From positions 32,054,001 through 32,118,000 of the forward strand of contig OX597835.1 in the NCBI GenBank assembly GCA_951406725.2: DNA of 64,000 bases. The letters run 5' to 3'. Shown here in pieces: positions 5,375-18,901 of the stretch. The notes below the pieces were generated by a model. That model had not been told where the DNA came from and made no database searches. It was given only the letters and a program-made list of their open reading frames with translations. The position numbers and the translations under genes were made by a program. Each line of letters opens with the position of its first letter. Positions within the stretch are counted from its first letter, which is position 1. Source of the stretch: Octopus vulgaris. Its lineage: Eukaryota.

Positions 5375-5478
5375 TTAATTTTTGTCCCTATACATTTTGT
5401 TTAGAATCAAGAGTAAGTCTTTCAAGGTTTTACTACGTCCTCCACTGGTGTTACAGCGAGCGTTCGACGAGCAGGCAG
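5375..5478 (-). CDS. Oxytocin/vasopressin-family precursor, terminal coding exon ('exon 3'): neurophysin C-terminus plus extension
   Basis: Strong acceptor ttgtttctctttcttttcctAG|CT at 5480-5479. In phase 1 with exon 2 it reads (S)ACSSNARCNTSGGRSKTLKDLLLILNKMYRDKN-TAA. It supplies Cys 13 and 14 of the 14-Cys neurophysin, and AATAAA signals follow. Too short for the ORF track. Confidence 0.9.
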
Positions 5479-6431
5479 CTAGGAAAAGAAAGAGAAACAA
5501 TGAACAAAAAATATAGAGATATGAAGTAAAGTAAAATTTTTAAAAAAAAGTATTTAATGAAACATTATTTTAAAAGTATCAGTTCCTAAGTGTATATCAA
5601 ATTTTGTAAGTATGTGAGTGTATATGTGTCACCCTTTCTCTCTCTCTCTCTCTCTCTCTCTCTCTCTCTGTATATATATATATATGTATATATGTATATA
5701 TATGTAAAGTATATTCTTCCCTTGATTAATGAGAACAACGAAAAACTTATTCAATCCGACGAAAGAGAAATATCATTTACTATGCTCGGGGTTTAAATAT
5801 TGCCCAATCATACATGGCACGCAATACGAGCACGCCCGATACTATTGTTATCATGAAATTTACAAGAGCTCAGTTGTGTGAATTAAATTATATATATATA
5901 CATGTGTGTCTATATAGATAGATAGATAGATAGATAGATAGATAGATAGATAGATAGATAGATAGATAGATAGATAGATAGATAGATAGATAGATAGATA
6001 GATAGATAGATAGATATAGATATAGATATATTCATATATGTATATATGTATATGTACGTATGTATGTATGTATATATTTTGGATTAGATGGCCCAGAATA
6101 AGTCCGCTGCTGACGAGGGCCTCAGTATGTTCTTCCTACCAATCACGGTCTGATGCGCAGGCTGTGAATTTAAGCTTGAGTTCATACTAGTTTTGGTGAG
6201 CCTACTCTGCCACACAGGCTCGAGACGTCTTGGTAGAAGGATGCAGTTTTTATACGCATACACGGGAGTAGTTGAGTCGATTACATCTTTGTTGGTACCT
6301 ATTTCATCAACGCTGAAAGGGTGAAAGGCAAAGTCGGCCTCAGCGGAATAAGAGCTAAGAATGCGTAGGAACGGACGAAATACAGCAATGTATTTCGCCC
6401 GGTGTGGTAGCGATTCTACCAGCTCCCGAAA

Positions 6432-6670
6432 AGCCTGCTTTGAGGCCCAACATTCCGAGTTCTTTGACAAGGCTTAAAAAAACTGAAGGACTGCTGCAAT
6501 AAGAGTGTGCATCTGAGAGGGGAATATCTTTATATATAAAAGAGAAGTTGTGTGTCTGTCTCCTACGATTTAGAGCAACGCCGGGCGATACTGCTAGTAT
6601 TAAATAAAATCATAATTAACTGATCCTTTTGTATTTTCTTTTACCCAAAGCCAGGAACTTTGAGCACCCT
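6432..6670. mobile_element. Small DNA-transposon-derived (mariner-like) remnant, interrupted by the mini-Helitron
   Basis: Aligns by eye with 27380-27580 (GAGGCCCAA..TTCCGAG..AACTGAAGGAC..TGCAATAAG..AAAATCATAATTAACTGAT). Confidence 0.55.
6527..6597 (+). mobile_element. 71-bp mini-Helitron-like element
   Basis: 5' TC(TTTATATATAAA) and 3' CTAG preceded by GC-rich GCAACGCCGGGCGATACTGC. Inserted between A and T with no TSD, inside a repeat whose uninterrupted version is at about 27515-27540. Confidence 0.8.
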
Positions 6671-6802
6671 CTCTTATATATTTATGTATGTATGTATGTA
6701 TAGTAGTACTAATTTATTACAACAAACACATACTCTTATACACATCTACACACGTAAAGGAATGATGAACTGTGTAAATAAATAAAACACGAAAATATAA
6801 TA

Positions 6803-7034
6803 TATTTCTTTACTACCCACAAGGGGCTAAACACAGAAGGGACAAACAAGGACAGACAAAGGGATTAAGTCGATTATATCGACCCCAGTGCGTAACTGGT
6901 ACTTAATTTATCGACCCCGAAAGGATGAAAGGTAAAGTCGACCTCGGCGGAATTTGAACTCACAACGTAGCGGCAGACGAAATACGGCTACGCATTTCGC
7001 CCGGCGTGCTAACGCTTCAGCCAGCTCACCGCCT
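6803..7034 (-). mobile_element. SINE family A, young near-complete copy
   Basis: GGCGGTGAGCTGGC head, B-box-like GAGTTCAAATTCC, family core and ...GTGGGTAGTAAAGAAAT tail. Confidence 0.88.
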
Positions 7035-7392
7035 TGCGAAAATATAATAATGAAAGAAATCTATGAACGAAGTAAATCAAAGAGAAAAAAGGAAAGAGAG
7101 ACAAAGAGTGAGAAAGAGAGAGAAAGAAGCAGAAAGAAAAATAAGAGAAATTAATCAAAAATGCTTCCGTAAAAATCCGAAGAGAAGTAATGTATATCTC
7201 TTGACTCCATGATTAAGAGTATGTGAGTGGATGCGTGTGCCCACGTGTGCGAGTGGTGGTGGTGGTGGGGGCGTGTGTATGCAGTTATATCTATCGTTTT
7301 TATTTCTATCTATCCATCTATCTACCTGTCTACTTATCTATCTGTGTGTGTGTGTGTGTGTGAGCTTATTTATCTATGTACGTATATGTGTC

Positions 7393-15722: not shown

Positions 15723-16484
15723 TGTGTTTCTGTGTTTCTGTGTTTCTGTGTGTGTGTGTGTGTGTGTGTGCGTGTGTGTGTGTGTATACGGAGAGAGAGA
15801 GAGAGAGAGAGAGAGAGAGAGAGAGAGAGAGAAGAGAGAATGACAGATGGATAGATTGCTAGATAAACCGACCGATAAACAGACAGGTAGATTAATAGAT
15901 ATACACACACAGACTCACACTCACGTGCACACAAGCATACGCACTTATTCTAGTTTCTTAATGAAAGCTGATTAGAACATTCAGTAATGAAGATTGGATT
16001 TCGTTGAACTCATTTCTCGTCTCTATTTGCGACTCGAGTTTCAGTCACTTCGAACTTCAGACAAAATGACTTCTCGATTGAACCTCGTGTTGACGGGAAT
16101 ATTTCGTCACACACATACACACACACACACAGATATAAACACACATAAACACAGAGACACATTTATTGTGCACGTGTGTCTTGTTCGTACGTGTGTGCGA
16201 GCCCGAATGTGGGCGTGTTGTGCTAACACAAAGTAAATATCAAGAACAAAAAATATAAAAAATGTGAGCCAGAATATTAGAGGAATTGAGCAACGTTGGA
16301 ATGTGTGTTAAACTCTTTTATTTATCTATACTTGATTCAATTCAATCCAGGTCAATGCCTTTTACCACGTATCTAGTTCTTTGAATTCTACAATGAAAGT
16401 AAACAACCGCACCGTTCCCATGAGATATAGTTGCTGTTCTATATGCGTATTCTCAAAGGAACTGGATTATTTATTAACTTAGGT

Positions 16485-16885
16485 AAGGCACAAGGCGGAC
16501 AAAGTGCTAAGCAGCGTTTCGTCCGTTTTTTTCCTTCTGAGTTTAAATTCTACCAAGGTCGTCTTTGCTTTTCATCCATCTGAGGTTGATAAAATAAGTA
16601 CCAGTTGTGCAGTGGGATTGATCTAATCGATTATCACCCATCCCAAAATTGCGGGCCTTCTGCCAAAATTTTAAACCAATATCAAGTATGACAGCGAGCT
16701 GGCACAATGGTTACCGCGCCGGATAATATGCTTTGTGGCATTTTGTCCGTCTTTACCTTCTGATTCGAAATTCCACCGAGGTCTACCTTGCCTTTGACCC
16801 CTTAGGGGTCTATAAAATAATTTGAGCACTGAAGTCAATGTAATCGGCTTGCCTGCTACCCCTTGTGCCAAAATTTGAAACCAAT
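16485..16885 (+). mobile_element. SINE family A, two degenerate tandem copies
   Basis: Two diverged head-plus-core units, each ending in TGCCAAAATTT..AAACCAATAT. Confidence 0.65.
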
Positions 16886-17532
16886 ATTAATACTAACTAG
16901 TAGTCATTTTATGGTTGCTATTTACTTACGTTAATATAATCCCGGGGAGCATGGAGTCTAGGGTTACAGTCCAATATAAGTGCTATGTGATTTTATAAAT
17001 TACATGATACTTCCTTTCATTTCCTCATGTAACAGTCCGCTTCTTTAGTTTTGTCTCTATAACTTTCATGAATTACCTAACAATGTTGTTTTAATGGTGG
17101 AGTTGTGACGTTAAAAATTATCACGTCTATTGCAATTAAAGGTGTTTTCTTTTTTAATGCTACTTAACTTGTTGCAATCCATATTAAACGAAGCTTATTT
17201 ATACCATAATGAGGCTGAAAATATGTATTGCTCTCTTGTGGGTTTATTGGGTGTCATTTTGATAACCGATGGAGTAGAGGACACAATGTCTTCTGGCATT
17301 TTGTATCTTCCCTCTAATTGAAGCTGCATGGACTAGTGGTTAGGGTTCCGCACTCGCGTTTCGCAGATCATGGTTTTGGATCCAGGATCGGGCGGTGCGT
17401 GGTGTCCATCAGCAAAACACTTCGCTTCAGATTACTTCGGCTCACTCAACTGAAAATGAATTCCAGCAAAGTTTGGGGATTGACCCAACAACGGACCGGC
17501 GCTCGCTTTAGGAGCGAGTTTCTTTTTTCTTT

Positions 17533-17912
17533 TCTTTTACTTGTTTCAGTCATTTGACTACGGCCATGCTGGAGCACCGCCTTTAATCGAGCAACTCGAC
17601 CCCGGGACTTATTCTTTTGTAAGCCCAGTACTTATTCTATCGGTCTCTTTTGCAGAACCGCTAGATAACGGGGACATAAACACACCAGCATCGGTTGTCA
17701 AGCAATGCTAGGAGGACAAACACAGACACAAACACACACACGCACATATATATATATACATATATACGACGGGCTTCTTTCAGTTTCCGTCTACCAAATC
17801 CACTCACAAGGCTTTGGTCGGCCCGAGGCTATAGTAGAAGACACTTGCCCAAGGTGCCACGCAGTGGGACTGAACCCGGAACCATGTGGTTGGTAAACAA
17901 GCTACCTACCAC
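17533..17912 (-). mobile_element. SINE family B
   Basis: Near full-length reverse copy. Confidence 0.88.
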
Positions 17913-18699
17913 TAGGCCTTATTTGGGTTCCACTATCGAAAACGAATTATCACAGATCTCTCGATGTTTCCGAATTCATGTGGTCTTCAGAGTTATTTGG
18001 CGTTGTGAAATGGAAGTGGTGACATTCTAGAGGAAGCAAAATAGTTTCAATCTGGAATTGAAAATGATGAGTAGAACAACGCAGAATAACGTAAACCGAC
18101 CAGCGCCGGTTGTCGAGCGATGTGGGAGCCAAACACAAACGCACAAAGATTTATACACACATACCTACATTATATAATTATATACATATATTTATGAATG
18201 CATACATATCTACACATATGTATGTGCCAAATGTATATTATACAGTGGGCACAACAATATTCTCAGACTGTTGTAAAATGGTATAATATCCGCACACACA
18301 CAGTGGAGAAGGGCAGGCCCCAAATAATACATATAGAACATATAATACATATATATCTGTGTGGATATATTTGTAAATATATATATATATATATACATAT
18401 ATATATATAAACATAATAATTTTGCTATAATGAAGAAAGTTGCTTCTTAATTACTATAGGTATGGAGCATTTAATAAAAGAAAGCAATTATTAAATTCAA
18501 CACCACCTGGAAAGTTCTTATAAATTCCAATTTTAATAGGTCTTTTTTATAAAATGTGATTTTTAAAGTCCTTTTACGATTTCATGTCAGGATTCACGAT
18601 TCAATGACCAGGCTGATTTTTATGCACTGCCATATAGTTAACTTCCGCAGATAAAACAAATAAACCGAAGAAAGAATGATTATATGATTGTATACTTAC

Positions 18700-18901
18700 A
18701 TTCATCGCAGCAAACACCGTCGGCAACACATCGTCCTTGTCCGTCAGTTCCACACGGCACCCCTTTCACAGAACATGCTGTCGTGCTCTCGTTTTCCTCA
18801 TTGCATTCCTTTGCGAGTGTGCCTATGATGCAACCGTCTTTGTGGCAGCATATGTTGGATCCAACACACTGGCCTTCACCATTTGGTCCGCAAGACATAC
18901 A
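18700..18901 (-). CDS. Oxytocin/vasopressin-family precursor (cephalotocin/octopressin type), internal neurophysin exon ('exon 2')
   Basis: Translates to CMSCGPNGEGQCVGSNICCHKDGCIIGTLAKECNEENESTTACSVKGVPCGTDGQGRCVADGVCCDE plus 1 nt, with 12 Cys in neurophysin spacing. Acceptor is a polypyrimidine tract plus ttactAG|TGT (AG at 18903-18902). Donor is GAAT|GTAAGT at 18700/18699. Length 202 nt, phase 0 to phase 1, as in vertebrate OXT/AVP exon 2. No symbol given because the nonapeptide exon is not visible. Confidence 0.96.

Follow-up and report, generated by a model that had tools for sequence, protein, structure and literature searches.

Cephalotocin and octopressin of Octopus vulgaris are probably products of one gene whose first and last exons alternate around a shared neurophysin exon

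Background

Whether Octopus vulgaris encodes its two hormones of the vasopressin/oxytocin family, cephalotocin and octopressin, in two intronless genes is the question raised by a stretch of 64,000 nucleotides (nt) of its genome (positions 32,054,001 to 32,118,000 of contig OX597835.1, assembly GCA_951406725.2), hereafter called the window. According to the relevant passages of a 2020 review (PMC7181382), which relays Kanda et al. 2003, both genes consist of a single coding exon, and papers from 2018 to 2023 still speak, in the passages that concern them, of two genes or of duplication (PMC7181382, PMC9144402, PMC10172372, PMC6062618). The locus agrees with this literature in its peptides and precursor proteins, but it departs from the model of two single-exon genes born by duplication in having introns, in a middle exon (E2) that appears to be shared by both hormones, and in a last exon (E3B) that is absent from the named GenBank precursors. 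We consider it probable that a single gene, rather than two intronless ones, underlies both hormones, with first and last exons that alternate around the shared E2.

Parts of this structure are already annotated: the NCBI models of O. bimaculoides, O. sinensis and O. vulgaris, named as conopressin or terepressin isoforms, include the set of two heads by two tails and a spliced E2-E3B product. The supplement of a 2023 paper (PMC10172372) lists isoforms X1-X4 in a tree, and the passages of that paper that were available contain no comment on them. No paper was found that states the shared exon, the one-gene conclusion or the 'cephalotocin-del' product described below, in a search that left most subscription journals outside its reach, and a prior remark is possible.

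Results and discussion

A neurophysin exon spliced to a last exon 13 kb away

The initial annotation of the window had proposed a 202-nt neurophysin exon with canonical splice sites and, 13.2 kb away, a phase-compatible terminal exon that completes a set of 14 Cys, and both proposals stand. E2 (Table 1) is flanked on its acceptor side by a long pyrimidine tract ending in AG and on its donor side by GTAAGT, in phase 0 and phase 1, respectively; E3B is likewise preceded by a pyrimidine tract ending in AG. Joined across the 13,221-nt intron 2, E2 and E3B form one open frame with 14 Cys, in which E3B encodes the last two Cys of the neurophysin followed by a tail rich in Leu and an N-T-S sequon. 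The Pfam profile Hormone_5 (E 1.1e-17) and solved neurophysins (E 4e-15) both match E2. In the O. vulgaris model CAI9739012.1 the last 101 residues are the same as the E2-E3B peptide, which from its Met on is also identical to O. sinensis XP_029649633.1, and O. bimaculoides differs from it by one residue, in E3B. The signal peptide, the Cys1-Cys6 nonapeptide and the GKR cleavage site lie outside the window but are present in full-length precursors that are identical over E2, and the 14 Cys are reached with E3B or with the other last exon, E3A.

E3B is present in 20 of 24 listed sequencing runs, from nine studies, six of the 20 being flagged as a possible source of the window DNA. Four runs from four studies, none of them flagged in this way, were mapped to positions 18420-19150; runs X2, X14 and X18 are RNA-like and run X9 is DNA-like and of genome size. 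The E2-E3B junction was read from the letters at the loose ends of contigs, and contig depths were not used for ranking isoforms. Two further runs (X19 and X20) are RNA runs labelled as insect metagenome in which half of the E3B words occur; they are likely to be contaminated or mislabelled and were not used.

The junction from 18700 to 5478, which the initial annotation had named as the one to look for in RNA, is present in two of the three RNA-like runs (X2 and X18), where the letters past 18700 are unique in the window at 5449-5478. In X2, one unforked contig of 453 nt comprises the end of cephalotocin exon 1, as which its 5' end translates, followed by E2 and E3B; in X18, the E2 contig continues into E3B, and a 547-nt contig would, if collinear, reach approximately position 5136 in the 3' untranslated region (UTR) of E3B. 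In X14, E2 stands alone as a 205-nt contig that ends one base past the exon, and the junction with E3B is therefore absent from this run; such an overhang would be expected if E3A, which starts with CC, and E3B, which starts with CT, fork at that point. The RNA contigs begin and end at the edges of E2, and the RNA-like status of the three runs is supported by their exon-only cover: in X14 the depth is 1310 on the exon versus 2.3 on one nearby intron piece (a 33-nt repeat-like piece at depth 31 is the exception), and in X2 and X18 there is no intron cover. The introns are almost certainly real. With a 13,221-nt intron 2 and an intron 1 of more than 45 kb, the gene is not the single protein-coding exon of the 2003 model, and the contradiction of that report, which had been anticipated from the sequence, is borne out to the extent that the passages of the 2020 review (PMC7181382) convey its content.

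Two first exons on one middle exon

Two different first-exon contigs fork at the E2 acceptor in two of the three RNA-like runs, which come from different studies (727 and 472 nt in X14; 807 and 356 nt in X18), and each of these runs contains a single E2 contig with no mismatches to the window; the E2 contigs of all three RNA-like runs contain no other letters. The mixed consensus on the 5' side in X14 and X18 differs from the cephalotocin letters at 13 of 30 positions, and by hand count all 13 fit the codons at the end of octopressin exon 1. Because E3B is the sole 3' path from E2 in X18, both hormones appear to use E3B in that run.

The same arrangement is found in proteins. Among nine Octopus precursor entries that were compared (P0001, P0002 and P0006-P0012), the 67-residue core encoded by E2 is identical in every one, whichever hormone or tail it accompanies, and is thus 100% identical between cephalotocin and octopressin precursors; the two first-exon peptides have little in common beyond the hormone and the cleavage site. 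The four models of O. bimaculoides, isoforms X1-X4 (XP_014771381, 389, 397 and 402), are the four combinations of two heads with two tails and are all listed with an equal-sized source contig. O. vulgaris has two adjacent models (CAI9739011/012) with the octopressin head and either tail. The points at which heads and tails switch in database proteins coincide exactly with the splice sites in the window, and the annotations of the three Octopus species list one core each.

A second last exon and an exact skip of the middle exon

The GenBank precursors of octopressin (BAC82435.1) and cephalotocin (BAC82436.1), which are probably the complementary DNAs (cDNAs) of 2003, both end in E3A, which lies outside the window. 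The initial annotation had suggested the published cDNAs as a route to the junction from 18700 to 5478, but their alignment would not show it since they end in the other exon. Identical proteins are recorded under second accessions (BAC84977.1, BAC84978.1). Splicing of the E2 donor to E3B is observed in RNA, and its splicing to E3A is suggested by the database proteins, by the one-base fork in X14 and by a product that omits E2.

This product, 'cephalotocin-del' (BAC82437.1; P0034), matches cephalotocin in its first 52 residues and then continues into E3A in a shifted frame. All 34 codons of its tail are compatible with E3A, provided that the base carried over is the T that ends E2, and with no other base; by comparison, 10,000 shuffles gave no run longer than 4, and the longest run against E3B was 5. 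The entry reads as an exact skip of E2, and it fixes the start of E3A as CC, versus CT for E3B. Unless introns occupy both of these places, it is difficult to see how an O. vulgaris entry could lack exactly E2. The product consists of the hormone and a 34-residue frameshifted tail with no neurophysin; it would provide the hormone but not the carrier, and it may represent noise in splicing.

One gene or two

The proposed gene builds on the observed boundaries of E2 and E3B, the splice that joins them, the two 5' exons on one E2 sequence and the exact skip of E2. The gene would have two alternative first exons at a distance of more than 45 kb upstream of E2, each coding for a signal peptide and one nonapeptide, together with the GKR site and a short linker. 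The cephalotocin or the octopressin first exon would be spliced in phase 0 to a single 202-nt E2, and E2 in phase 1 either to E3B, which has its own polyadenylation signals, or to the more distant E3A, with the outcome of four precursors that each have a complete 14-Cys neurophysin carrier. E2 is predicted to be single-copy. Each first exon would have its own promoter, so that the hormone would be chosen by the promoter; separate promoters would account for the difference between the reported expression maps, in which octopressin is broad and the ventral median vasomotor lobe is the main site of cephalotocin, as summarized in the review already cited (PMC7181382). The naming of the isoforms gives indirect support to two first exons that are collinear upstream, each with a promoter. 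E3A would lie beyond E3B, so that E3B, with its five AATAAA signals, would compete with it, and the choice of last exon would then be coupled to polyadenylation. The 'intronless genes' of 2003 would be spliced sequence, either carried over from cDNA or present as retrocopies. The initial annotation was correct in that E2 and E3B are real, but it overlooked both the sharing of E2 by the two hormones and the second last exon.

Several observations weigh against a single gene. The first exons and E3A are outside the window (motif searches and tblastn for the cephalotocin and octopressin first exons and E3A gave nothing above noise in its 64 kb), leaving only part of the proposed gene in the DNA that was analysed. 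The single copy of E2 is drawn from one shallow DNA contig of X9, at depth 3.7. Contigs of short reads and automatic models can join, across the shared 202 nt, exons that were never on one mRNA; the O. vulgaris models that were found carry the octopressin first exon only, and the O. sinensis models (XP_029649633/634) lack any first exon. Vertebrate paralogues are reported to keep exon 2 nearly identical, in cattle over 197 bp plus 135 bp of intron, and in shark and coelacanth with 97-98% identity. A squid transcriptome contains a second gene, which has a neurophysin of its own and a tail that is very short (supplement 2 of PMC10172372, as far as it was available), and by eye 46 of the 67 residues of its core are identical to the squid's other precursor; this gene implies that whole-gene duplication did occur in cephalopods.

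The near-identical second exons of vertebrate oxytocin/vasopressin pairs, the second gene in squid and the shallowness of the single DNA contig would all be accommodated by two intron-containing paralogues, in which E2 and the downstream exons have been homogenised by gene conversion and then collapsed in assemblies. We consider this alternative unlikely. Both last exons occur with each hormone, so that E2, E3A and E3B, a span of more than 18 kb, would all need to have been duplicated and homogenised, and no second letter occurs in the E2 contigs of the RNA-like runs. The X9 contig, of 555 nt with two other letters and one gap, covers E2 and both intron flanks and is unforked through intron sequence of approximately 250 nt upstream and 75 nt downstream, and the one core per annotation in three Octopus species also tells against paralogues. 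A pair of the vertebrate type, in which each hormone has an exon 2 and an exon 3 of its own, is disfavoured by the one E2 sequence and by the four pairings, as far as a shallow DNA contig allows. The X9 contig is weak evidence for a single-copy E2 and against retrocopies, because contigs drop rare forms and 27 pieces are outside the display.

It is quite unlikely, although compatible with a single gene, that the spliced locus coexists with intronless retrocopies of the two main mRNAs, and that these were what was sequenced in 2003. Such copies would account for the single coding exons that the 2020 review ascribes to both genes (PMC7181382, in part), and BAC84977.1 and BAC84978.1 may be genomic entries. 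However, their proteins are identical to those of the other accessions, as carry-over from cDNA would give; none of the five listed loose ends in X9 is at an exon edge, and this one DNA-like run contains no contig of an exon-exon junction, which at its low depth counts weakly; and 'cephalotocin-del' would not arise unless the expressed gene had real exon boundaries.

A further alternative, which we regard as highly unlikely, is that the first exons are located on separate transcription units and trans-spliced to E2, or that the pairings with E3A and E3B are partly chimeras of assembly, so that fewer than four isoforms are real. No first exon lies within 45 kb of E2, the O. sinensis models are without exon 1, and the RNA evidence is entirely from short-read contigs; but both first exons are represented in the models of O. 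bimaculoides, with an equal-sized contig, the X2 contig passes unforked from the end of cephalotocin exon 1 through E2 to E3B, X18 has a single 3' path, and intron 1 of Aplysia, as reported, is already 40 kb. Finally, it is scarcely credible that intronless genes are the ones expressed and that the split is an artefact of assembly or belongs to a dead fragment. What speaks for it is the 2003 report alone, in the form in which reviews relay it; against it stand the canonical splice sites, RNA contigs that break at both edges of the exon, an independent DNA contig with both flanks, the exact exon skip and the same boundaries in read-through products of the cuttlefish type.

Comparison with other genes of the family

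The vasopressin/oxytocin genes of Bilateria (vertebrate AVP/OXT and those of echinoderms and amphioxus, and Aplysia vasotocin) have the same signal peptide, nonapeptide, GKR site and 14-Cys neurophysin as the octopus products, and the same three coding exons per transcript with a phase 0 and a phase 1 intron, such as are found around the octopus neurophysin core. They differ in that each hormone has one gene and the paralogues are merely alike in exon 2, whereas in octopus a single physical exon 2 apparently serves two hormones and two tails. Exon 2 of the vertebrate genes is 202 nt long, a length for which a literature search gave no paper. The equal length of E2 was considered and rejected as a point of interest, being the product of offsetting insertions and deletions: E2 aligns over 67 residues to residues 10-76 of bovine neurophysin, with two deletions offset by a two-residue insertion.

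The introns do match the vertebrate positions, as the initial annotation had claimed, but these positions are not specific to vertebrates: they are the same in echinoderms, amphioxus and Ciona according to the passages seen of PMC10532012 and PMC2656470, identical intron sites are reported in ant genes, and read-through products indicate them for cuttlefish also. The octopus layout is by this comparison the ancestral bilaterian one. The accompanying claim of an expanded ancestral layout holds, but large introns are ordinary: those of Aplysia are reported as 40 kb (the first) and 2.5 kb, and those of shark and coelacanth reach 3.2 and 5.6 kb, respectively (PMC2656470, in part). Intron expansion was rejected as a point of interest, being ordinary for molluscs. 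Table 3 of PMC2656470, as seen in part, gives a cephalotocin whose positions 2 and 3 disagree with the precursor entries and with other papers, probably a typing error.

Tails of other cephalopods and the origin of the two hormones

One gene that yields two hormones by tissue-specific exon choice, with the last exon tied to polyadenylation, is known from calcitonin/CGRP (CALCA) and other neuropeptide genes. In CALCA, one signal peptide is common to the hormones, and the exons that alternate are downstream ones that encode the hormones; in octopus, the alternation would be between first exons, each with a hormone and its signal peptide, and the carrier that follows would be common.

Nine of ten non-Octopus tails that were tested score higher against E3B than against E3A, several only slightly, and the tail of Argonauta scores far higher against E3A (z 16.4 versus 1.2); by these scores E3B is the ancestral type, and E3A appears specific to octopods. 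Read-through products place the same exon boundaries in cuttlefish. Henry et al. in 2013 reportedly described two cuttlefish precursors that share an identical neurophysin; pro-sepiatocin (AHH31547.1) was absent from the matches of the protein search. In squid, a first exon of the CFFRN type is followed by a core of which 57 of 67 residues are, by eye, identical to cuttlefish sepiatocin, and by a tail of the E3B type (PMC10172372 supplement 2, in part); this precursor fits a shared-core design in squid and is no proof of it.

A joint interpretation, offered tentatively and with somewhat less than even confidence, is that the hormone pair of coleoid cephalopods arose by duplication of exon 1 only, within one transcription unit, in a common ancestor of octopus, cuttlefish and squid, and that octopods then duplicated the last exon to give a code of two by two. 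The type of neuron would pick the hormone by promoter and, independently, the tail of the carrier by polyadenylation; the Leu-rich, sequon-bearing E3B tail would act like a copeptin-bearing form, with E3A as the alternative. Such a code might serve hormone sorting or release, and the exon-skipped precursor without a carrier would be a fifth product.

A published qPCR assay within the shared exon

Both primers of a 'cephalotocin' assay by quantitative polymerase chain reaction (qPCR; PMC5736919) match E2 exactly, once each; the amplicon is 143 nt long by our count and 142 in the part of the paper that gives it. The same source reports cephalotocin expression in the gastric ganglion, which its authors could not reconcile with an earlier finding of octopressin only. 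With primers in the shared E2, octopressin mRNA would amplify equally, whether E2 is shared or present as two identical copies, and a shared E2 would explain the conflict over the gastric ganglion.

Other features of the window

The coordinates of the locus are given in Table 1.

Table 1. Exons, introns and assay target of the locus, in window coordinates
Feature	Position	Strand	Description
E3B 3' UTR	5130..5374	minus	five AATAAA signals, starts 5297, 5287, 5266, 5195, 5135
E3B coding part, proximal alternative last exon	5375..5478	minus	104 nt including stop
Intron 2 (to E3B)	5479..18699	minus	13,221 nt, phase 1, GT-AG
E2, middle coding exon	18700..18901	minus	202 nt, 67 codons + 1 nt, neurophysin core with 12 Cys
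'Cephalotocin' qPCR amplicon (PMC5736919)	18759..18901		primer sites 18759-18778 and 18882-18901, wholly inside E2
Intron 1, downstream part	18902..64000	minus	phase 0, at least 45,099 nt

Intron 2 consists of 15% tandem repeats and at least 25% dispersed repeats that are seen elsewhere in the window. It contains an inverted repeat with arms of 332 nt (7393-7724 and 12663-12994) that are 98% complementary, 4.9 kb apart and without a further partner within the window; the arms could form a long stem in the pre-mRNA, as an element for editing or splice choice, or could mark the ends of a degenerate DNA element. Dispersed repeats of 200-400 nt, for which the window contains 10-16 partners of both orientations, occur at 6800-7076, 14757-15124, 16490-16850, 17530-17913 and elsewhere; they are probably octopus families of short interspersed elements. 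A near-perfect tandem duplication of a 247-nt unit (34854-35344; 99% match) is either a recent duplication or an echo of assembly, a 26-nt unit is present in five perfect copies at 58175-58304, and short telomere-like runs of TTAGGG/CCCTAA lie within the introns (12337-12385 and 45282-45327). A nested gene was considered and rejected, as the 50 stop-to-stop frames of at least 120 amino acids look on inspection like read-throughs of microsatellites or repeats. A match of E3B to DUF7466 (E 0.012) was weak, fell below the cut-off and was disregarded, and a search of Rfam gave no matches.

Conclusions

Probes and primers in the neurophysin part, and RNA sequencing counts over it, cannot separate cephalotocin from octopressin, and studies by knock-out, by knock-down or of single cells must target the first exons. 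If the proposed gene is correct, it would overturn the repeated statements that the octopus genes are intronless and arose by a duplication that parallels that of vertebrate oxytocin and vasopressin, and it would represent a second route to a two-hormone system, by duplication of exon 1 with a shared carrier exon.

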